Part shown: one piece after another, positions 17,324 through 31,074 of the stretch
Layout: every line of letters begins with the position of its first letter
Position numbering within the stretch: the stretch's first letter is position 1
Source: an uncultured delta proteobacterium
GTDB taxonomy: Bacteria; Desulfobacterota; Syntrophia; Syntrophales; UBA2185
Assembly (NCBI GenBank): GCA_963729715.1
Contig: CAVSPA010000006.1
Location: 192,001-256,000, forward strand
Reading direction: 5' to 3'
Length of the DNA stretch: 64,000 nucleotides
Notes under the pieces: model-generated
What the model was told of the DNA's origin: nothing
What the model saw: the letters and a program-made list of their open reading frames with translations, nothing else
Databases searched by the model: none
Position numbers and translations under genes: made by a program

Positions 17324-18763
17324 TCAGCTCCTTATCTTGATTACTACTTTTATGGATGGTTCCCTTCTGCCTTCGAATTGAACCTCTGAGGGCACAATCA
17401 GCCTTGGTGCAAATGTAGTTGTTGAAGTTAGTTGGCTTAAGTCAATCGGTGTCGTCCTTATCCGAATTTTGGTGTGAAGCAGCTTGCCCGGTGCTAGAAC
17501 CCTAACTGCCGGAGGTGTCACCGTGATCTTCTGGATGGCAACTCCCGGGGGCGGCGCATTTTTAGTTACAACCTCGACAGGAACGGAAATATGGACAAAC
17601 CGTGACGCAGTGACGGTGATGCGACTGGGCTTGATCCCCACTATGGTTAGGTTTGAAGGTGCATCTATCATGTCTTTCGTGAGTACTATATCCTGTCTGC
17701 CTTCTTGGATCTGCGATAGATTCAAGGATATCTTGAGTGTGTCCATATTCAGAATCTGAAAGGTCTGCGGGGGACCAACAAGCATTACCTTAGCTTCAGA
17801 AATTTTAGGCTCTTTGATTACCCATTCAGGGGGTATGTTCAGATATTCAACAGGTATGGTAAAGTCCTTCTGGATTGATTCCCTCTGGTATCCGAAAATC
17901 ATCCAGAGGATACAGGCAAGGATAATGGCGATGACCTTCTCCTTCGTATTTTCTTTTAACCACCGTGCAAGAGGCCCCGGCTTCCTTAAGGGTGCTTTGC
18001 TTGTATAATAAGTTACCAGGACACCCTTGAGTGCTGATGCGCTGACTTCCCTGATCCGTTCACCTTCGGCAATGCAAATGGTTCCCCTTTCTTCCGAAAC
18101 AACTATGGAAATGGCGTCCGACCGTTCGGAGAGGCCGAGGGCGGCAGTATGGCGAAGACCAAGATTCTTGTAACGACTGGCATTCGGCGAGAGGGGCAGA
18201 TGGCATCCAAAACGAGTTACTACGTTTCCGTCAATTACAACGGCGCCGTCATGGCCTACGGAATGAGGATCAAAAATGCTTTCCAGCAGTGGCTCGCTGA
18301 GAGTGCCGTTCAGTTCCACGCCGCCACTGAGATGTCTGTCAAGAGGATCGCTTCCCTGGATAACAATCAGGGCACCGATATGCTTTCGTGCAAGATCGGC
18401 CACAGTCTGTGCTATGATTTCAGATGTCTGTCCATGTGATGTTGTCCTTTGAATCCTTTTCCTGATTATTCCCAGGATGGCAAGACGTTCAAAGAATCTC
18501 CGGAGGTCTTCCTGAAATATAACAACAAGAACGAAAAGAAGGATGGCAAAAAATCCCTGCAGGACGACTGTGGTGAGGTAAAGTTGGAAAAATTTGGCAA
18601 TGACGTAGATAAAACCCAGGAGACTGATGCCGATGAATACAAAACGTGAGGCTCTGTCTTTAATCCATATCAGGAGTACGGAAATGGCTATCGATATGAT
18701 GGCAATGTCAAGGACGTCCTGAATCCGCAGGCTCTGCAACATTGGCCAGATGCTATCTATCAT
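17324..18763 (-). CDS. cdaA: Diadenylate cyclase CdaA fused to YbbR (CdaR-like) domains
   Basis: Three N-terminal TM segments, HDGA and GLRHTAALGLSE..DA...VVSEE motifs, a further TM, then beta-rich YbbR-like repeats. Confidence 0.88.
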   Translation of the reverse strand: MIDSIWPMLQSLRIQDVLDIAIISIAISVLLIWIKDRASRFVFIGISLLGFIYVIAKFFQLYLTTVVLQGFFAILLFVLVVIFQEDLRRFFERLAILGIIRKRIQRTTSHGQTSEIIAQTVADLARKHIGALIVIQGSDPLDRHLSGGVELNGTLSEPLLESIFDPHSVGHDGAVVIDGNVVTRFGCHLPLSPNASRYKNLGLRHTAALGLSERSDAISIVVSEERGTICIAEGERIREVSASALKGVLVTYYTSKAPLRKPGPLARWLKENTKEKVIAIILACILWMIFGYQRESIQKDFTIPVEYLNIPPEWVIKEPKISEAKVMLVGPPQTFQILNMDTLKISLNLSQIQEGRQDIVLTKDMIDAPSNLTIVGIKPSRITVTASRFVHISVPVEVVTKNAPPPGVAIQKITVTPPAVRVLAPGKLLHTKIRIRTTPIDLSQLTSTTTFAPRLIVPSEVQFEGRREPSIKVVIKIRS

Positions 18764-18941
18764 AATCTCTTTTCTTTCATGTCAGAAGGACCATCTGTCC
18801 GCATCTTGACTTTGTTAAATAAAACACGGTGATATAATTTTTGCAATAGACAATATTTATGAATCTCATTTTTTTCTTGACAACGGTTTCTGCTTATGGT
18901 TTTGTTAATTTAAAAGATTATTAGTAAGCGTGATAGACGGA

Positions 18942-19025
18942 ATGAACACAAACGGGTTGATCAAAGGCTTTTATTACTGGAACTACTATTTCCTATTGGT
19001 CTGCCTGTTGCTCGGGAGGAATTAG
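18942..19025 (+). CDS. Aromatic amino acid attenuator leader peptide MNTNGLIKGFYYWNYYFLLVCLLLGRN
   Basis: 27-aa ORF in which 7 of 8 consecutive codons are Phe/Tyr/Trp; lies upstream of the aro operon. Confidence 0.85.
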   Translation: MNTNGLIKGFYYWNYYFLLVCLLLGRN

Positions 19026-19061
19026 CGCCAGTTAAATGAAACATAAGAGCCATGGGTAGAC
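18999..19061 (+). promoter_or_regulatory. Antiterminator hairpin of the attenuator
   Basis: GTCTGCCTGTTGCTC (18999-19013) pairs with GAGCCATGGGTAGAC (19047-19061) at 14 of 15 positions including G-U. Confidence 0.8.
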
Positions 19062-19092
19062 TGAAGGAAGCTGCCCATGGCTTTTTATTTTT
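19046..19092 (+). terminator. Attenuator terminator 1
   Basis: AGAGCCATGGGTAG...CTGCCCATGGCTTT followed by a T-rich tract. Confidence 0.85.
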
Positions 19093-19094
19093 GT

Positions 19095-19134
19095 GAGGCC
19101 ATGGGAAGAGTTGTTTCCATGGCCTTTTTCTATT
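19095..19134 (+). terminator. Attenuator terminator 2
   Basis: GAGGCCATGGGAA...TTTCCATGGCCTT followed by TTTCTATT. Confidence 0.8.
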
Positions 19135-19294
19135 CATTGAGGTGCAGCATGTTCGAAAAGTCCCGCCCAAAGCGCGGGATTTACGGGATGTGCATTCAGC
19201 CAAGGCGACGCCTTGAGAAAAGGGAGCAGTCCAATCGCCTGCTGGCGGGTGGACAGGCATGGACTCTTAGATTTAATTTTGAAGGGGGAGAATC

Positions 19295-20323
19295 GTGATT
19301 ATCGTGATGAAGAAAAGTGCAACGGAAGGACAGATTGAGAACGTTATCGCTTGGATAGAATCCGTGGGATACAACGCCCATCCTTCACGGGGCGTTGAAC
19401 GGGCTATAATAGGTGCAGTCGGCGACGAGCGGGGCAAGGCTTTCCTGATGTCTGCAGAATCAATCTCCGGGGTGGAAAAGGTCGTATCCATTCTTAAGCC
19501 GTATAAACTGGCGAGCCGGGAGTCAAGGGAAGAAGATACCATCATACGGGTGGGAGAAGTGGAAATCGGCGGTCCACGCTTCGTAGTCATGGCCGGCCCT
19601 TGCTCCGTGGAAAGCGAAGAACAGGTGATGGAAAGCGCCTACATTGTAAAGAAGGGAGATGCGCAATTCCTCAGGGGCGGAGCATTCAAGCCAAGGACAT
19701 CCCCTTACAGCTTCCAGGGTATGGAAGAAGAGGGTCTCAAGTTGTTGGCAAAGGCTAGGGAGAAAACAGGCTTGCCTGTTGTTACGGAAGTCATGAATAC
19801 GGCAGACGTCGATCTCGTCGAGGCGTATGCTGATATAATGCAGGTCGGAGCGCGCAACATCCAGAACTTCCCCCTCCTCAAACAAGTTGGCCATTCACAG
19901 AAGCCGGTTCTCTTGAAGCGGGGAATGATGACCACAATCGAGGAACTGCTGATGTCGGCAGAATACATCCTCTCTTCCGGAAATAATCAGGTTATTCTCT
20001 GCGAGAGGGGCATTCGCACCTTTGAGACTGCCACCCGCAACACGCTGGATATTAGCGCGGTTCCGGTTTTGAAAGAATTAACCCATCTTCCGGTCATCGT
20101 TGACCCCAGTCACGCCTCGGGCAACTGGAAATATGTGATTCCTCTGAGCAGGGCAGCCATGGCCGTGGGGGCGGATGGACTTCTTGTCGAGGTTCATCCT
20201 GAGCCCGAGAAGGCTGTTTCTGACGGCGGTCAATCTCTCAAACCGGAAAAATTCTACCAGCTAATGGAAGAGATAAAGAGCCTGGAGGGCGTTATCAAGA
20301 AAAGGAAGCAGGTGTTTCGATGA
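19295..20323 (+). CDS. aroF: DAHP synthase, class I-beta, with N-terminal regulatory domain
   Basis: [33 protein letters not shown] motifs. Confidence 0.95.
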
Positions 20324-21414
20324 AGAAGATAAAGGTCAATCTGGATAAAAAAGTTACCGCCTCCTATGAGATATGCATCGGATATGACGTTCTGGACCGG
20401 ATAGGGCTGCTCATCGCGAAACATATGCCGGCCCTTCGTTACATCATCATTACTGATGTCAACGTCTCAGCCATCTATGGAAAGATGCTTCTCGACAGAT
20501 TGAAGGGCATGGCGCTTCCGGCGGATATGATCGAATTTCCTGCAGGGGAGGATGCAAAAAGCATCGGCGCGACCGTAGCCATAGTCGAGAGACTGATAAA
20601 ACTTGGAGCTGACAGAAAGTCCGCTCTTCTTGCCCTGGGAGGTGGAGTCGTCGGTGACGTGACAGGTTTTATCGCGTCCACGTTCATGAGGTCTGTTCCC
20701 TATATCCAGATTCCCACAACCCTTGTGGCCCAGGTGGACAGCAGCATCGGCGGGAAGACCGCCATCAATCTTCCGGAAGGGAAAAACCTGCTCGGGACCT
20801 TTTACCAGCCGAGAGGAGTGTTCATTGACGTGAAGTTTCTGGATACACTTCCCGAAGAAGATATGAGCAGCGGCCTTGCGGAGGCGATCAAATACGGCGT
20901 AATTGATAGTGTGGAGTTCTTTAATTTTTTGGAGCGAGATATTGAGGCAATCAAAGAGAGGGATCGGGATGTTCTCGAGGAAATCATTGAGAATGCGTGC
21001 AGGATAAAAAAGGGTATCGTAGAGATAGATGAAAAGGAGATGGGGCTTCGCCGTGTGCTCAACTTTGGTCACACTATAGGACACGCCATCGAAGCGGAGT
21101 CCCATTATACCGTGTCGCATGGGGCCGCCGTCTCCCTGGGCATGGTCGCTGCCGCAAGGATTTCAGAGGGCATGCATGATTTTCCCCGCAGGGATCGGAA
21201 GAGGATTGAACACCTGCTGGAAAGTGCGGGTCTTCCCTGCCGTATTCCGCAAACTCTAACAACGGATGGTATTATGGCGAGGTTAAGAGCGGACAAGAAA
21301 AAAGAAGGTGATAGGATTCATTTCGTCCTGCTTAAAAAGATGGGAATGCCTTTCATAAACGGGGGCGTCCCTGAATCGATTCTGTGTGAAACGCTGGAGG
21401 AAATGAAAAAATGA
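20320..21414 (+). CDS. aroB: 3-dehydroquinate synthase
   Basis: [34 protein letters not shown]. Confidence 0.95.
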
Positions 21415-22493
21415 GATTATCATTACTTGATCGCCTCCGGCGTGATCTCAAGGAAACGGACGGCAGGATCGTAAAGCTGCTCAATGAGAGAGCTTTACTA
21501 TCCATGAAAATAGGAAGCGATAAGGCAAGAAAGGGACTGGATGTGTTCGATGCCTCGCAGGAAGCGAAACTTCTTGCATACCTGGCAAAGGTCAACGAAG
21601 GGGCGCTGCCGGAGAAATATCTGAAGGCCATATTTAGGGAGATCATTTCCGCTTCGCGGGCCTTGCAGAAGCCAGTTACAGTGGCCTTTCTGGGACCGCA
21701 CGCGACATTCAGCCATCTCGCTGCAGAGGATTATTTCGGTACGAGCAGCGGCTTCATCCCTCAGGCAAGTATCTTTCATGTCTTTGACGAAGTTGAGAAA
21801 GGGAAGGTGCAATGGGGGGTTGTCCCCGTGGAGAATTCCCTCGAAGGTTCCGTCAAATTGACCCTTGATCGATTGATATTGACCCCCCTTACGATTCGGG
21901 CGGAGATTTTTCTGAGGATCAGCCACTGCCTGCTTGCGCCGATGAAGAGACTGGACAGGATCAAGCGGGTCTATTCGATTCCCCAGGTGCTGGCGCAGTG
22001 CCAGGGATGGCTCCGCACCAATCTTCCCCGGTGTGCGCTTGCTGAAACAGAAAGCACCGCTGCTGCAGTCCGGATTGTCCGGGACTGTAAAGATGGCGCC
22101 GCCATAGGAAGTCGCCTCGCTGCCGCCACGTACGGGCTCAATATACTTTCGGAAGGCATCGAAGACAATCCATCGAATACGACGCGATTTCTGGTCATAG
22201 GAGAAGGTGAAAGCAACATGACGGGAACAGATAAGACGTCAATCCTCTTCAGTACCCGCCATGTGCCGGGCGCCCTGTATCATGCGCTGGAGCCATTTGT
22301 TCTGCAGCGGATTAACCTGATGAAGCTCGAATCATATCCCCTCAAGGAGAGGTTATGGGAGTATCTCTTCTTTGTTGATTTTTCCGGTCATACAGATGAT
22401 CCCGAAATCAGAAGATGCATTAAAGCCGTAAGGAGGAAGACCAATTTCCTGAAGGTCCTCGGATCTTATCCCAGGGGCGAGGAAACACGATGA
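21411..22493 (+). CDS. pheA: Chorismate mutase/prephenate dehydratase
   Basis: N-terminal AroQ domain, VPVENSLEG, NTTRF, C-terminal ACT domain. Confidence 0.93.
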   Translation: MRLSLLDRLRRDLKETDGRIVKLLNERALLSMKIGSDKARKGLDVFDASQEAKLLAYLAKVNEGALPEKYLKAIFREIISASRALQKPVTVAFLGPHATFSHLAAEDYFGTSSGFIPQASIFHVFDEVEKGKVQWGVVPVENSLEGSVKLTLDRLILTPLTIRAEIFLRISHCLLAPMKRLDRIKRVYSIPQVLAQCQGWLRTNLPRCALAETESTAAAVRIVRDCKDGAAIGSRLAAATYGLNILSEGIEDNPSNTTRFLVIGEGESNMTGTDKTSILFSTRHVPGALYHALEPFVLQRINLMKLESYPLKERLWEYLFFVDFSGHTDDPEIRRCIKAVRRKTNFLKVLGSYPRGEETR

Positions 22494-24025
22494 TCTGTAT
22501 TCCCATCACAGGAAACACACAGGAAGGAGCCATGCTCCAGATAGAGATGGGCTTGTCATGCGCCCATGTGTTAGAATTAAGAATGGATTTGATTAGTGGA
22601 GACTTAAAGACGTTGATGGAAAAGTGCAGATCGTCTCGAAAGCCTGTCAAGATACTGGTCACAAACAGGAGAAAGGAATCTTTATCGTCTGTCAAAATTT
22701 CAGGCGAGAGACGGAGGATCGCTCTGCTGAAGGAGGCTGTCCACCTTGGCGCGGATTATGTGGACGTTGAACTCTATACACCCGATGCTTTGCGGAAAGA
22801 TGTGCTGGCGACGGTGAGCGCCCATGGAAACAGGACCAGGATGATTATTTCGCATCATGATTTCAGCAAAACGCCGTCATTAGAAATATTGAAAAACATT
22901 TTCCATGACTGCGTGGAATGCGGCGCCGGTGTTGCTAAAATAGTCACTCTTGCAAAAAGTTCGGAGGATAACCTTACGGTTCTCAGCCTGCTCCCTTACG
23001 CCCGTGATAGAAAGAATGATCTCATCGCGTTCTGTATGGGGGAAGAGGGAAGGGAAAGCAGGATAATGGCGCCCCTCCTTGGTTCTTATCTCAGTTTCGC
23101 CTCGCTGAAGGACGGACTGGCCTCAGCATCTGGTCAACTTACCGTCGGTGAGATGGAAGATGTCCTGAATATCGCCGGTCATGATATTCACAGGAAGGGC
23201 AAGTTATCCGTGCCCCCGGATGCGAGGCTTTTTTGTCTTTTGGGAAATCCTGTGAATCAGAGTCTCTCGCCCTTGATGCATGATGCGGCGCTCAAAAAGA
23301 TGAAAATCGTGGCTAAGTATTTGCCATTCTGCATCCAGGATATTGGCTCTGCCGCAATGGGCATCAGGGGTAGTGGCATCTGCGGTGCAAGTGTAACCGT
23401 ACCTTTTAAGGTTGCCGTCTTGGAACATCTCGATGAAGCAGATGCTGACGCGCGGAAGATCGGAGCAGTAAATACCATCGTCAATGACAACGGCAGGCTG
23501 AAGGGCTTCAATACCGACTGGATTGGTCTTGTTCGATCCATCAGCGAAGTTACAGATATCAAAGGGAAGGTGTTCGCCATTTTGGGAGCCGGCGGAGCCG
23601 CGCGGGCCGCTGTTTTCGGCATCGAGAGAGAAGGGGGCATTCCAGTTATCGTCAATAGAAATGTCGCCAGGGGGGAAAACCTGGCAAAAGAGTGCGGATG
23701 CTCTTTTTACCCTCTTTCGGAGTCGAGCAGGGTCAGGGCGGATTGTCTGATCAATACAACACCCGTGGGCATGACACCGAATGTGGATGAATCTCCCGTC
23801 AGCAGCGCGATTCTTGTTAATTACCAGTGGGTCATGGACGTTATCTATAATCCTCTGAAGACGAGACTGATGCGCGATGCTGAAAATGCAGGGTGTATAA
23901 CCGTACCGGGCCTCGGCATGTTCGTTCATCAAGGAGCGGAACAGATCAGGCTCTGGACGGGACAGGAAGCCCCGAGAGAGTTTATGAAGCAGGTCGTGAG
24001 GGAGCGCCTTTTATATGGAAATTAA
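22490..24025 (+). CDS. aroDE: Fused type I dehydroquinase/shikimate dehydrogenase
   Basis: ELRMD and SHHDF..TP (AroD); SLSP.MH, GAVNT, NTD, GAGGAA (AroE). Confidence 0.9.
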   Translation: MICIPITGNTQEGAMLQIEMGLSCAHVLELRMDLISGDLKTLMEKCRSSRKPVKILVTNRRKESLSSVKISGERRRIALLKEAVHLGADYVDVELYTPDALRKDVLATVSAHGNRTRMIISHHDFSKTPSLEILKNIFHDCVECGAGVAKIVTLAKSSEDNLTVLSLLPYARDRKNDLIAFCMGEEGRESRIMAPLLGSYLSFASLKDGLASASGQLTVGEMEDVLNIAGHDIHRKGKLSVPPDARLFCLLGNPVNQSLSPLMHDAALKKMKIVAKYLPFCIQDIGSAAMGIRGSGICGASVTVPFKVAVLEHLDEADADARKIGAVNTIVNDNGRLKGFNTDWIGLVRSISEVTDIKGKVFAILGAGGAARAAVFGIEREGGIPVIVNRNVARGENLAKECGCSFYPLSESSRVRADCLINTTPVGMTPNVDESPVSSAILVNYQWVMDVIYNPLKTRLMRDAENAGCITVPGLGMFVHQGAEQIRLWTGQEAPREFMKQVVRERLLYGN

Positions 24026-25274
24026 GCTGGTTCATCGTTTGAATGCAACTGTCGAGGTTCCCGGTTCCAAGAGTTACACGCAGAGGGCCCTTGTTGTTGC
24101 CTGCCTCGCGGAAGGCAGATCCATGCTAAGCAATGCGCTCATTTCGGAGGATACGAGATATTTTATAGAGGCGTTGCGTTTCCTTGGCGCTGAGATCATT
24201 ATCTCAGGGAACGATGTCACGGTCGCCGGAACAGGCGGTCATATGCATAATCCAGGACGGGTGATCATGCTGGGGAACAATGGGACGGCGCTGCGGTTTC
24301 TGACGACACTGGCCTCTCTGGGGAAGGGTGAGTATATTCTCGACGGCAGCAGCCGCCTTCGTGAAAGGCCTTTGGGGCCGCTTCTCCGCGCCCTGAAAAT
24401 CCTGGGAGTTCAATTTCAAAGCAGGGACGGCTATCCTCCGGTCAAGATCGTTACAGAAGGCTTAAACGGCGGCAACGTTGCCTTTGCAGATGTGGAGAGC
24501 AGCCAATATGTCTCGTCGCTCCTCATCGGCGCTCCTTACGCAGCGGGCGATATAGAAATTGCGCTCACAGGGAAGACAGTTTCCCAGCCCTACATAGACA
24601 TGACTGTGGACGTCATGGGGCGCTTTGGCGCGGAAGTAATCACGAGAGAAAAAAAATTATTCAATGTAAGAAGCAGGCGTCATTACAGGGGACAGAGGTA
24701 CATCATTGAAGGAGATGCATCCAGCGCCTCCTATTTTTTCCTGGCTGCCGCATTATGCCGCGGACGGGTCAAGGTCGTAAACATCAACCCGGCAAGCCTT
24801 CAGGGTGACATCAATATCCTGGGCATAATGGAAAGTCTTGGCTGTTCCGTAGTCCGTGGAGATCGTTGGGTCGAGGTTGTCGGCGGACCGTTACATGAAG
24901 GGGACGTCTTTTTCGACATGGGAAACATGCCTGACATGGTGCCGACCCTAGCGGTTCTTGCTGCATTCAGAGAGGGACAAACGACTATCACAAATGTTTC
25001 ACATCTGCGCGTTAAGGAAAGCGACCGTATAGTGGCGCTGGTAAGTGAACTAAAGAAGATCGGTGTGGCTGCAAGAGAAACGGCGGACGGCCTCATTGTC
25101 GTCGGAGGGAGACCGCATGGCGCCCATATTGAGACATACAACGATCATCGGATTGCCATGAGTTTCGCCATCGCAGGGCTTGCAGTGCCCGGGATCAGAA
25201 TAGAGGACAGGCATTGTGTGGGGAAATCATTTCCCGGATTCTGGACTGAGCTCTCAAGATTGTATGAGGATTAA
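24015..25274 (+). CDS. aroA: EPSP synthase
   Basis: PGSKS, GNNGTALR, SSQYVS, LRVKESDRI, DHRIAM. Confidence 0.95.
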   Translation: MEIKLVHRLNATVEVPGSKSYTQRALVVACLAEGRSMLSNALISEDTRYFIEALRFLGAEIIISGNDVTVAGTGGHMHNPGRVIMLGNNGTALRFLTTLASLGKGEYILDGSSRLRERPLGPLLRALKILGVQFQSRDGYPPVKIVTEGLNGGNVAFADVESSQYVSSLLIGAPYAAGDIEIALTGKTVSQPYIDMTVDVMGRFGAEVITREKKLFNVRSRRHYRGQRYIIEGDASSASYFFLAAALCRGRVKVVNINPASLQGDINILGIMESLGCSVVRGDRWVEVVGGPLHEGDVFFDMGNMPDMVPTLAVLAAFREGQTTITNVSHLRVKESDRIVALVSELKKIGVAARETADGLIVVGGRPHGAHIETYNDHRIAMSFAIAGLAVPGIRIEDRHCVGKSFPGFWTELSRLYED

Positions 25275-25835
25275 GTGCACATAGTACTGATTGGATACCG
25301 TGGAACGGGTAAATCTGCCGTGGGAAAAAGGCTTGCCGATAAGCTGCGCATGCCGTTCTATGATACGGATGAGCTTGTCGAGCAAGAGGCAGGGATGTCG
25401 ATCCGGGACATGGTAGCGGAAAAAGGCTGGGCATATTTCCGGAAGAGAGAGCGTGAGATTGTCAGGAAGCTGGCGCTTCTGCAAAGAGGCGTTGTGGCGA
25501 CAGGCGGCGGGGCGGTCACGGATGAGGGCAATTGCGGCATTATTAAAGAGCACGGTTTATTGATCTGGCTTAGGGCTGATGTGATGACGATGGTTGAAAG
25601 AATGAGGGACGATGCGGCGAGTGAAGAAAGGCGGCCTGCCTTTTTGCATGATGATGTCTTTCGGGAGACAGAAGATGTCCTAAAGCAACGGATACCGGTA
25701 TACAGGGGGCTGGCGGATTTTTCGCTGGATACAACGGGTAAGAACATAGATGAAATAGTCAACGCTGTCTGTGAATTTCTGAACGGAGCAGGCGGATTTA
25801 TCAGCAAGGAATCAACATGTCAGGAAATTCCATAG
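25275..25835 (+). CDS. aroK: Shikimate kinase
   Basis: G.RGTGKS, DTD, ATGGG motifs. Confidence 0.92.
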   Translation: MHIVLIGYRGTGKSAVGKRLADKLRMPFYDTDELVEQEAGMSIRDMVAEKGWAYFRKREREIVRKLALLQRGVVATGGGAVTDEGNCGIIKEHGLLIWLRADVMTMVERMRDDAASEERRPAFLHDDVFRETEDVLKQRIPVYRGLADFSLDTTGKNIDEIVNAVCEFLNGAGGFISKESTCQEIP

Positions 25836-26890
25836 GCGTTTTCTTTAGAGTGACAACCTGGGGTGAATCACATGGTCCCGCAACTGGTGCGGTTGTGGAC
25901 GGATGTCCTCCCGGTATTGGCCTTGTAGAAGAAGACATTCAGAAATGGCTGAACAGGAGAAGACCGGGCAGGATCGCCTCAAGTTCGCCCCGTAAGGAAA
26001 ACGATATAGTTAAAATACTATCGGGGACTTTTCAGGGAAAGACCACGGGTACGCCCATTTCCCTGATTATGGAGAACATGGACGTTCACGGCAGCGCCTA
26101 TGAAGACATCAGGGACGTCTTCAGACCCGGGCATGGTGATTTTACCTATTTCAAAAAGTACGGGATCCGCGATTACCGGGGCGGTGGACGTGCTTCGGGC
26201 CGGGAAACGGCAGCTCGCGTGGCTGCAGGGGCAATTGCGCAAAAAATCATTTCGCGCCTAGGTGTGGTAGTCATTGCCTATACGAAGGCGCTGGGAGGTA
26301 TTGTCATAGATCGAACGAAATACACAGCCGGAACAATCTTTCACGAAGATATAGCGGCAAATCACCTGCTGTGCCCAGATCTTGACGCTGCAAGGGTTAT
26401 GGAGGAGAAACTGGAGGAAGCGAGACTCTCCGGCGATTCCCTCGGCGGTATTGTTGAAATCATCGTGAGAGGATGCCCCCCGGGTCTGGGAGAACCGGTG
26501 TTTGATAAGATGGATGCCGACCTTGCGAAGGCACTCATGAGCATCGGGACGGTGAAGGGAGTGGAGATAGGGGCCGGCTTCAAAGTTGCCGAAATGACCG
26601 GGTCTCAGGCAAATGATCCCATGACGCCTGATAGTTTCCTTTCCAATCACGCCGGCGGCATACTGGCCGGCATTACGACAGGCCAAGATATCGTTTTGCG
26701 GGTGGCGGCGAAGCCTATCCCCTCGATTGCTAAAGTCCAGCAGACCATCGACATCCGGGGAAATCGAGTGGAATTGTCGCTCAAGGGGAGGCACGACGTA
26801 TCTGCAATACCCCGCATAATTCCTGTGTGCGAGGCGATGGTGACAATTGTGTTGGCGGATCATTTATTGAGGCAAAAGGCGATTTCATGA
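25817..26890 (+). CDS. aroC: Chorismate synthase
   Basis: GESHG, RPGHGD, GGRASGRETA, GRHD. Confidence 0.95.
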   Translation: MSGNSIGVFFRVTTWGESHGPATGAVVDGCPPGIGLVEEDIQKWLNRRRPGRIASSSPRKENDIVKILSGTFQGKTTGTPISLIMENMDVHGSAYEDIRDVFRPGHGDFTYFKKYGIRDYRGGGRASGRETAARVAAGAIAQKIISRLGVVVIAYTKALGGIVIDRTKYTAGTIFHEDIAANHLLCPDLDAARVMEEKLEEARLSGDSLGGIVEIIVRGCPPGLGEPVFDKMDADLAKALMSIGTVKGVEIGAGFKVAEMTGSQANDPMTPDSFLSNHAGGILAGITTGQDIVLRVAAKPIPSIAKVQQTIDIRGNRVELSLKGRHDVSAIPRIIPVCEAMVTIVLADHLLRQKAIS

Positions 26891-27666
26891 ATACCAAGAT
26901 AGGCATCATTGGCGGCACCCGCGGCATGGGCTGTTGGTTCGTCCGTTTCCTCGAGAAGGAGGGACACGCCGTGCGCGTGTGCGGAAGGAATATGAGTCAG
27001 TCGGATATTGCCAAAATGGCCGATACATGTGACGTGGTAGTTGTGAGTGTCCCCATGGGGGCAACCGGCAATGTTATTGCGAAGGTTGGTCCGCATATGC
27101 GCGCGGCCTCTCTTCTCATGGATCTCACATCTCTGAAGCGGGATTCCGTCAAGTCTATGTTGGAAACATCCGTTTCCGCGGTGATTGGATGCCATCCCCT
27201 CTTCGGTCCCAGGGTTGATTCCATCACGGGGCAGCATGTTGTCCTCTGTCCTGCGCGAGCGGGGAAGTGGCTTTCCTGGCTTACGGACATCTTTGAGAGG
27301 AACGGTGCGCTTATGGTGGAAACGACGCCGGAAAAACATGACCAAATGATGGCCATCGTTCAGGGACTCAATCATTTCAATACAATCATGATGGGTCTGA
27401 TTTTGAGCGAGGCGGGGGTGAACCTGTCAGAGTTAATGAAGTTCTCCACACCGGTCTTTCGGGAGAAGATGGAAATCTTGGAAAGAGTATTTTGTCAAAA
27501 TTCCGGGCTCTATGCCGACATCTTAACGATGAATCCTGAGATTCATCGGCATATCGACGCATACGAACAAAACGTAGCTCAACTGAAAAATCTAATCCTT
27601 CACGGAAATAGCGCGGGTCTTGCAGATGTGATTGAGAAGCACGCCCCTTTCTTTAAAGTCGTCTGA
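26887..27666 (+). CDS. tyrA: Prephenate/arogenate dehydrogenase
   Basis: IIGG..GMG, D.TSLK, HPLFGP, HDQMMAIVQGLNH. Confidence 0.9.
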   Translation: MNTKIGIIGGTRGMGCWFVRFLEKEGHAVRVCGRNMSQSDIAKMADTCDVVVVSVPMGATGNVIAKVGPHMRAASLLMDLTSLKRDSVKSMLETSVSAVIGCHPLFGPRVDSITGQHVVLCPARAGKWLSWLTDIFERNGALMVETTPEKHDQMMAIVQGLNHFNTIMMGLILSEAGVNLSELMKFSTPVFREKMEILERVFCQNSGLYADILTMNPEIHRHIDAYEQNVAQLKNLILHGNSAGLADVIEKHAPFFKVV

Positions 27667-29280: not shown

Positions 29281-30207
29281 CTAATCAACGGCATTTTGCA
29301 GGATTGGTTCTACTTCATTTACGGACAGTAGATTCTTGTGGCAATTTCTGAGGTCAAGGGTGGTCTGAGTATAGGGGTAGAGATCAAGAAAGGGAATCTT
29401 CTTGCAGACGGCGTTGTGAACCCGCTCATCAAAGCTGATGTTTCCGACAAAATGCATCTTCAGGGCGAGGTGTCTTTGGATAATCTTGCTGATCAATACC
29501 CCAATATTTTGGTTGTCCTGCTTTCTTAACTGGTTTAAGGCCAGCTTGAAGTTGAAGGCCTGCAGTTCATTTTCCAGGAGTTCACCCTTCTCGGCATCAA
29601 GCTCCTTCATGGTGTGGAGTAGAATGTCCGGGTTGCTTACAGTGGCCCTGCGGTCACGTTCTTGGGCTTCCTCGGCCAGCGCCCGGAAATTATGGCTGCT
29701 AAGGATTTGACGGATTTTCCGAAAATAAACAGAACGGATTAAGCGGTAAATGTTTTCTATGGAAGTCGGTTCGGGCGTTGTCACAAAGATGCCAGTGTCG
29801 GAGACCATAAAGAAATCTATGGTGTTAAAAGCAGTTCCCGCGCCGAGATCGAGCAGGATGTAGTCATAAGAGAGCTTGGAAATATTTCGTGTGATCTTTA
29901 ATTTCTGCTCGTGGGCAAGATTGGCGATGTCCAGATTATTCATCGCGCCACTGATGAGATAGAGGTTTGGAACAGGTGTGGGTTCGACTGTCTCCTGAAG
30001 CGTGCCCACCTTCTTATTTACGAAATCCGAGATGCTTTTTTCGGGATGAGGAAGACCGATAATGGTGTGGAGATTGGCTGCTCCGAGGTCAACATCAACC
30101 AGAAGGGTTTTATACCCTCCCTTCGCAAGCAGAATACCGAGATTGCCGGTAATGAAACTCTTGCCGGAGCCTCCCTTCCCACCTCCGATAGACCATATGT
30201 TAGGCAT
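29281..30207 (-). CDS. MinD/FlhG/ParA-family ATPase
   Basis: Deviant Walker A GGKGGSGKS, DVDLGAANL, DLGAG, TTPEPTS. Confidence 0.85.
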   Translation of the reverse strand: MPNIWSIGGGKGGSGKSFITGNLGILLAKGGYKTLLVDVDLGAANLHTIIGLPHPEKSISDFVNKKVGTLQETVEPTPVPNLYLISGAMNNLDIANLAHEQKLKITRNISKLSYDYILLDLGAGTAFNTIDFFMVSDTGIFVTTPEPTSIENIYRLIRSVYFRKIRQILSSHNFRALAEEAQERDRRATVSNPDILLHTMKELDAEKGELLENELQAFNFKLALNQLRKQDNQNIGVLISKIIQRHLALKMHFVGNISFDERVHNAVCKKIPFLDLYPYTQTTLDLRNCHKNLLSVNEVEPILQNAVD

Positions 30208-30240
30208 AGTTTTTCTCAGCAATCTTGGTCAGATGGCTGA

Positions 30241-30269
30241 AGTATAAGAGAAAGAGTATCATATGTCAA
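30241..30269 (-). promoter_or_regulatory. sigma70 promoter for the MinD-like operon
   Basis: TTGACA-N17-TATACT on the minus strand. Confidence 0.75.
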
Positions 30270-30699
30270 GGGCGAGTCACTGCTCAAAATGGCTTTTTCC
30301 CGTCTCGACAAGCCGGAAAATTATATTTATACCATGACAGCATCGGTTTTCCAATTTATCGTGCGTGCAAATGCCGCCCTTCCAGACGTTTGATGTGTCT
30401 GGTTTGCGACTTTTCGCCCCACAGAGTGGAGTGTAATATCGGTCCCCGGCCGGCAGCAAAGAAAAATAATACTTGATTAAAATAAATTCTTCAATTAATT
30501 AGAAAAGTTATGCATAGAGACCCTTGCGAATGCATGCCTCATGTCATTGTGAGGTCAAGTCGCAGCCGCGGGCGCTGAGCGCAAAGACTTATTCGCGGAG
30601 CGTAAGAGGGATACGAAAGGGCTGACGTTTTCGAAGTAATTGTGTGATGCCTCCGTATGCTGAATTTGCATGCAGATTGGGGAAAATGGAGATTGACCA

Positions 30700-31074
30700 G
30701 TGATCGAAATTGATTTTGACAAAGGGAGTGGACTTGTGCCTGTTATAGTTCAGGACGTTGACACAGGAGAGGTTCTCATGCTTGCCTACATGAATCGGGA
30801 TGCCTGGCTGAAAACGCGTGAGACGGGCAAGGCGACATACTGGAGCAGGTCGAGAAATGAGCTGTGGGTCAAAGGTGAGACATCCGGGCATATTCAGATT
30901 GTCGAGGAAATTTTAGTTGACTGTGATTCTGACACTGTTCTTCTGAAAGTGAGGCAAGCAGGCGGTGCCGCGTGCCACACGGGCTACAGATCATGTTTCT
31001 TCAGAAGAGTCGTTAATGGAAAAACGGAGGTTATCGGGGAACGAATATTCAAACCGGAGGATGTCTACAAATGA
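30700..31074 (+). CDS. hisI: Phosphoribosyl-AMP cyclohydrolase
   Basis: WSRSR.ELW.KGETSG, DCDSD, ACHTG..SCF. Confidence 0.93.

Follow-up and report, generated by a model that had tools for sequence, protein, structure and literature searches.

The window analyzed here is a stretch of 64,000 nucleotides in which eight forward-strand open reading frames (19295 to 27666) were named by NCBIfam as aroF-aroB-pheA-aroDE-aroA-aroK-aroC-tyrA. The reading frames abut or overlap, pointing to co-transcription as the shikimate, phenylalanine and tyrosine operon proposed in an initial annotation made from the letters of the DNA; the scores of aroK, tyrA, the aroD domain and the chorismate-mutase domain were below the curated cut-offs. 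As that annotation had also claimed, a leader ORF of 27 amino acids lies ahead of aroF at 18942 to 19025 of the forward strand (translation MNTNGLIKGFYYWNYYFLLVCLLLGRN, followed by a stop) and contains the aromatic run FYYWNYYF. Translation could alternatively begin at an in-frame GTG at 18930, a correction to the earlier description. The leader is conserved across the order.

Control codons and RNA segments of the aroF leader

The control codons F10-Y11-Y12-W13-N14-Y15-Y16-F17 (18969 to 18992, forward strand) are conserved in relatives, and seven of the eight specify aromatic residues, so that the leader is a short ORF enriched in codons for the products of the pathway, as in ribosome-mediated attenuators. 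A density of at least seven aromatic residues per eight codons was found in only 3 of the 36,594 short ATG ORFs of the genome, this leader being one of them. The predicted leader promoter has a −35 hexamer, TTGACA, at 18877 to 18882 of the forward strand, and this hexamer is conserved in relatives: a TTGAC(A/T) motif was present in 115 of the 116 upstream regions long enough to test, at a median of 125 nt before the arm termed arm A below. A divergent diadenylate-cyclase-like gene (17324 to 18763, reverse strand; TIGR00159, score below the cut-off) lies upstream of the leader. Contigs from one RNA sequencing run (0.05 share) fell on aroF only and left the leader uncovered, a result that is neutral as evidence.

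Six forward-strand RNA segments with alternative pairings were identified, numbered such that 1:2 is the protector, 2:3 the first antiterminator, 3:4 terminator 1, 4:5 the second antiterminator and 5:6 terminator 2. Segment 1 (18951 to 18967), the predicted protector arm, pairs with 18992 to 19009 in both the MFE and centroid folds; this helix had been overlooked in the initial annotation and was weak in prefix folding from 18915. A protector arm near the start was more stable than the mean of its own shuffles in 96 of 116 relatives, with a median of −15.7 kcal/mol versus −11.8 kcal/mol for the shuffles. Segment 2, or arm A (18990 to 19013), was defined by pairing, folding and covariation, and its core at 18999 to 19013 spans codons V20 to L24. 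The earlier claim that this core pairs with 19047 to 19061 at 14 of 15 positions was borne out (11 Watson-Crick and 3 G-U pairs), but the extent of the antiterminator required correction, the helix in this genome joining 18990 to 19013 with 19047 to 19069. Segment 3 (19045 to 19069; folding and covariation) is the 5′ arm of terminator 1, and segment 4 (19071 to 19092; folding and pairing) comprises the 3′ arm together with a U-tract at 19082 to 19092. The relay arm within segment 4 (19074 to 19084) pairs with 19095 to 19105 at 11 of 11 positions, two of them G-U, exactly as had been described. Its partner, segment 5 (19095 to 19107; terminator scan and pairing), is the 5′ arm of terminator 2, and segment 6 (19114 to 19134; terminator scan, folding and covariation) contains the 3′ arm and a U-rich tail at 19125 to 19134. 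Segment 5 is a near copy of segment 3, with a palindromic core, CCATGG, of which there are four copies at the locus.

The two tandem, U-tailed terminator hairpins were present in both the MFE and centroid folds of 18930 to 19200, a region with a z score of −5.1 and for which none of 200 shuffles was as stable; a simple terminator scan called terminator 2 and not terminator 1. Two predicted intrinsic terminators with covarying arms accordingly separate the leader from the first gene, the 5′ arm of the 2:3 helix that excludes the first of these lies directly after the control codons, and helices 1:2, 3:4 and 5:6 alternate with 2:3 and 4:5 in the six-segment arrangement of the his attenuator. Outside the conserved switch, a spacer with three further hairpins (19135 to 19290, forward strand) precedes the aroF ribosome-binding site. 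This spacer is a single-copy sequence in the genome, present in most of the genus but absent from one locus of the same genus (L008) and from most of the order.

The leader region is almost certainly an attenuator. No TrpR was found in the genome, which fits with control by attenuation alone. An Rfam scan of the window gave no real match, only three chance hits with E values of 1.4 to 3.4, and no Rfam leader, T-box or riboswitch reached the gathering score in the window. A search of a plasmid collection gave no match, and no His-rich leader was seen by eye at 30150 to 30750, upstream of the hisI-hisG-hisB cluster.

Conservation across the order and the amino acids predicted to be sensed

Orthologues of aroF were detected in 41 of 41 relatives and in 215 of the 239 genomes of the order. 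A total of 130 aroF upstream regions were analyzed, consisting of the 30 best from the 41 relatives and 100 selected regions, 19 of which were picked because trpC was not found and the remainder of which were spread over families. F/Y-rich leaders, mostly with Trp, and covarying arms were found order-wide, as the initial annotation led one to expect. Hairpin 1 (3:4) was present in all 130 regions and hairpin 2 (5:6) in 127, of which 124 were recovered by the final parser and 3 by eye, this parser having placed L208 and L219 wrongly and failed to detect hairpin 2 in L229. The three regions without hairpin 2 belong to family f11 and have terminator 1 only, and one of the three also lacks the leader. 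In one locus (L160, genome G044), the leader ORF and arm A have been lost and the promoter lies directly before a single terminator. Phe and Tyr codons were present in all 125 parsed leaders and Trp codons in 113. Of the five leaders that were not parsed, two were cut by contig ends, one was absent and two were parser misses in which Trp was visible by eye.

For the analysis of covariation, 61 of these regions were aligned. Pairing was maintained in 92.9% of cases for the terminator state, with two-sided changes at 15 of 23 pairs, a level reached in 0 of 500 shuffles. The antiterminator state was 94.5% paired with two-sided changes at 7 of 23 pairs, six of which fall in the 2:3 helix; for this helix, 93% of cells were paired and two-sided changes affected 6 of its 14 pairs. 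At least six U residues were present within 8 nt after 3:4 in 86 of 90 loci parsed with a first-pass parser, one that mis-registered arms. The U-tract after hairpin 1 is degraded in L229, which is within the order.

It is highly probable that Phe and Tyr are both sensed. A response to Trp is rather likely, as judged from a correlation between the Trp codon and the trp genes. In order to classify genomes, trpA and trpE were checked in 25 genomes, and 14 of these were classed as trp-less (one keeps trpA and one has a cut-off leader), where absence means that a gene was not found in an assembled genome and gaps in MAGs blur the classes. The Trp codon was absent from 9 of 13 leaders in the trp-less class and from 3 of the 112 remaining leaders, or, by genus, from 4 of 8 trp-less versus 3 of 46 other genera. 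In this comparison, the trp-positive class includes seven genomes in which trpC was not found but trpA or trpE was; moving them to the trp-less class gave absence in 9 of 20 versus 3 of 105. The exceptions were four trp-less genomes that keep the Trp codon and three trp-positive genomes without it. Across the order, trpC was found in 201 of 239 genomes, whereas families f6 (four genomes) and f8 (three genomes) yielded no trpC at all. In a tree of 17 AroF proteins, the trp-less families f6 and f8 did not group together, with 1 of 14 inner branches being well supported; independence of the losses of the Trp codon is only partly shown.

The main alternative is that the same attenuator senses Phe and/or Tyr only, with the Trp codon being a passenger or producing a negligible response. 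A single Trp codon is present in 101 of the 125 leaders, and the trpE gene has a Trp-rich attenuator of its own. Passages of PMC1183508 give a model in which sensitivity is predicted to be low if few of the control codons are cognate, and the available text of PMC11802643 reports that Tyr supply had no effect on the Corynebacterium glutamicum aroF leader, aroR, despite the presence of a Tyr codon, such that codon content is no proof of the OR gate, responsive to any of the three amino acids, that the initial annotation had proposed. Against this alternative, the Trp codon has been kept in 109 of the 112 trp-positive genomes, its losses from trp-less genomes are spread over four families, and W13 is the position at which a stalled ribosome best protects the 2:3 helix. 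On this evidence, we regard a Phe/Tyr-only switch as rather doubtful and favor sensing of all three amino acids.

Pairing between the two terminators

Only four tandem loci were detected among the 698 terminator-like hairpins of the genome, and three of these are the aroF, trpE and ilvB leaders; the double terminator is therefore not special to the aroF operon. Cross-pairing of 4:5 in these leaders has energies of −19.5, −13.3 and −12.9 kcal/mol, respectively, and random arm pairs reached −19.5 kcal/mol in 0.05% of cases and −12.9 kcal/mol in 2.7%. The trpE leader (L031, 613 to 790; contig C4 of genome G000 near 303665, forward strand) has three Trp codons and a relayed double terminator. The third leader (contig C5 of the same genome near 672926, reverse strand) is rich in Val, Ile and Leu, precedes an acetolactate-synthase-like gene recognized by eye from its N terminus, and folds at intermediate length as 2:3 plus 4:5. 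The relays of the trpE and ilvB attenuators are built from other sequences than that of aroF.

The 4:5 core was mismatch-free in 107 of 124 aroF loci and contained mismatches in 17; in genus g29 (four of four genomes), 3:4 has changed and segment 5 has not followed, resulting in 4:5 mismatches. Covariation of 4:5 was thin within the order, with a two-sided change at one of nine pairs among the 61 sequences. Both hairpins were parsed in 26 of 30 trpE loci, and one 4:5 position in these 26 leaders was G-C in 10, A-U in 11, G-U in 4 and mismatched in 1. The search was extended to 401 genomes of the phylum, which we take to be Desulfobacterota, with a pattern covering segments 2 to 4 only, blind to terminator 2 and not matched exactly by the genome of the window. 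Matches were obtained in 45 genomes and none with the reversed control. Among 30 phylum loci, 10 from two families have at most two U residues after hairpin 1, and all 10 retain a U-tailed 5:6 hairpin and a mismatch-free 4:5 core. Nine other loci are without a 5:6 hairpin of that type, and all nine retain a strong first U-tract; eight have both U-tailed hairpins and three are intermediate. One 4:5 position in the phylum loci was C-G in 10, U-A in 7, U-G in 2 and mismatched in 2, counts in which related loci are not independent. In the 10 loci whose sole terminator is terminator 2, segment 2 has no evident path to antitermination other than the relay. It is very likely that the relay disables terminator 2.

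Constrained and prefix folding gave a divided picture of the proposal that one ribosome stall disables both terminators. With the ribosome modeled at F10 to W13, the combination of 2:3 and 4:5 was the main state at transcript ends 19105 to 19110, and comparison and folding both indicate that the relay is able to act in this manner. At full length, however, the equilibrium favored both terminators for all of the ribosome positions modeled, so that read-through would need kinetic trapping. Path barriers, which rest on single-pair moves and an assumed ribosome footprint and hence speak for plausibility rather than function, were 21.0 kcal/mol against terminator 1 for a stall at W13, 13.5 kcal/mol at Y16 and 5.9 kcal/mol at F17. 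The OR gate would accordingly be position dependent, F17 and W13 being at the extremes of these values. On the same terms, barriers against terminator 2 were 10.2 to 15.2 kcal/mol, compared to 15.6 kcal/mol for the Escherichia coli his control, and the barrier from the relay state to both terminators ranged from 21.3 kcal/mol (stall at W13) down to 6.9 kcal/mol (ribosome at L19). When the E. coli his leader was subjected to constrained MFE folding, its antiterminator state was not recovered, and this leader was used as a control for duplex energies and barriers only.

Two other explanations of the paired terminators were considered. The first is that only terminator 2 terminates and that 3:4 is an extra hairpin or pause of the his type with an incidental U-tract. 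The 10 phylum loci without a U-tract after 3:4, the degraded tract of L229 and the failure of the simple scan to call terminator 1 are all in accordance with this explanation. It is nevertheless improbable, as U-tracts follow 3:4 in nearly all of the loci from the first-pass parse (86 of 90) and 3:4 is the sole evident terminator in family f11 and in nine phylum loci. The second explanation, which we consider slightly less probable again, is that duplication of terminator 1 left terminator 2 as a leaky throttle free of regulation, with 4:5 being a by-product and segment 6 displacing segment 4 in time. The resemblance of segments 3 and 5 with their palindromic core, the 17 loci with 4:5 mismatches, the near-equal energies of 2:3 plus 4:5 and 2:3 plus 5:6 (−49.7 versus −50.6) and the lowest barrier of 10.2 kcal/mol are compatible with such a throttle. 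It does not account for the constancy of segment 5 alongside compensated variation in the upper stem of terminator 2, for the occurrence of A-to-G changes, tolerated by 4:5, in 13 genera versus 4:5-breaking T-to-C changes in 2, for compensation of 4:5 in trpE leaders and across families, or for the loci with terminator 2 alone, which require the relay. A last suggestion, that the four CCATGG copies, being DNA palindromes, are repressor sites or a mobile repeat and that the ORF is incidental, can be dismissed as extremely improbable because G-U-tolerant and compensatory changes track RNA pairing, the pattern is present once in the genome, the leader codons at aroF, trpE and ilvB fit the pathway encoded downstream, and TrpR was not found.

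A predicted relayed attenuator and its relatives

The conserved Phe/Tyr/Trp leader and the two U-tailed hairpins probably constitute a ribosome-mediated attenuator with a six-segment relay of the his type. When aromatic amino acids are plentiful, the ribosome would cover segment 2, allowing terminator 1 to form, and any transcripts escaping terminator 1 would meet terminator 2. During starvation, the ribosome would halt at F10 to Y16 and segment 2 would take segment 3 before the synthesis of segment 4; once freed, segment 4 would take segment 5 ahead of the synthesis of segment 6, and the polymerase would read into aroF. In the absence of translation, 1:2 would form and terminators 1 and 2 would both fire. 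We further suggest, tentatively, that the two terminators are timed checkpoints and provide a kinetic proofreading step. A ribosome dawdling over the seven aromatic codons would let the polymerase past terminator 1 but, on moving on, would strip segment 2, whereupon segment 3 would retake segment 4 and terminator 2 would fire 40 nt later, with both terminators being cleared only by a lasting stall on Phe, Tyr or Trp. The same chassis, with or without the first U-tract and with its codons swapped, might then, throughout the phylum, control DAHP synthase, ADH synthase, trpE, ilvB and PaaK-like genes.

Contrary to the framing of the initial annotation, neither the domino-like relay nor multi-amino-acid sensing is novel. 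The enterobacterial thr, ilvGMEDA and ilvBN leaders, textbook examples of multivalent leaders, each respond to more than one end product of a common pathway, although their amino acids are different ones and they have a single terminator. The E. coli trpL and pheL leaders share the leader ORF, protector, antiterminator and terminator but have four segments, one amino acid, one terminator and no relay. A 2010 survey by Lopatovskaya et al. reportedly covered delta-proteobacteria and may have predicted the aroF element. The closest architecture is that of the E. coli and Salmonella his attenuator (RF00514), in which repeated arms form the same alternating chain of helices; the B:C, C:D, D:E and E:F duplexes of the E. 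coli leader have energies of −13.4, −14.1, −15.0 and −27.5 kcal/mol. This operon is controlled by attenuation only, and its extra hairpin, located between the pause hairpin and the terminator, lowers basal read-through, according to the sections of PMC1183508 on which this comparison is based. The aroF leader differs in its control codons, which specify Phe, Tyr and Trp, and in the U-tract carried by the extra hairpin itself. RF00514 matched the E. coli control but neither the window nor three related loci. The C. glutamicum aroR-aroF leader resembles the present one in codon logic only, having, in the available portions of PMC4046766 and PMC11802643, three codons (Phe-Tyr-Phe) ahead of DAHP synthase and no Trp, and belongs to another phylum; here, there are seven aromatic codons, eight genes and two terminators. 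Tandem terminators occur in the 5′ leader of rimP in some Gammaproteobacteria, and the part of PMC2965389 describing them mentions neither an amino acid leader peptide nor a relay. A literature search, with supplements outside its scope, yielded no description of the aroF element, nor of any leader-peptide attenuator in which two terminators are linked by a relay.

The mechanism class is not itself new; within it, the aroF element combines a his-type relay with a second U-tract and three predicted inputs. Its new features are the predicted terminator function of the middle hairpin, a Trp codon that tracks the trp genes and the reuse of the scaffold across operons. The element would provide control of aromatic amino acid synthesis in syntrophic and sulfate-reducing anaerobes. 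Loci with the first terminator only, the second only or both form a natural series for asking what is gained by the extra hairpin of his-type leaders, loss of the Trp codon in trp-less lineages is evolutionary evidence for a single codon being read as a signal in a mixed leader, and a compact switch with three inputs and two terminators could possibly serve as a low-leak biosensor.

The scaffold was also observed ahead of other genes. Aromatic-rich (F/Y/W) leaders on this scaffold precede an archaeal-type ADH synthase in L241, L242, L254 to L258, L265 and L267 to L269, with the ADH synthase being confirmed, and adjoined by dehydroquinate synthase II, in L255; the attenuator has stayed where the entry enzyme is replaced by the non-homologous ADH synthase. 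Phe/Tyr leaders with a relay and the last terminator only (L048, L064, L095 and L249 to L253) precede a gene of roughly 480 amino acids that had no NCBIfam match when tested in L250 and is a candidate aromatic-metabolism gene. Phenylalanine can be made from phenylacetate, and a Phe-rich leader and scaffold before a PaaK-like phenylacetate-CoA ligase (L060, L061 and L104; score just below the cut-off) hint at this route. By eye, the scaffold was seen with a weakly aromatic leader before an aconitase-family gene in L042 and with a non-aromatic leader before a glutamine-amidotransferase-like gene in L068 and L260.
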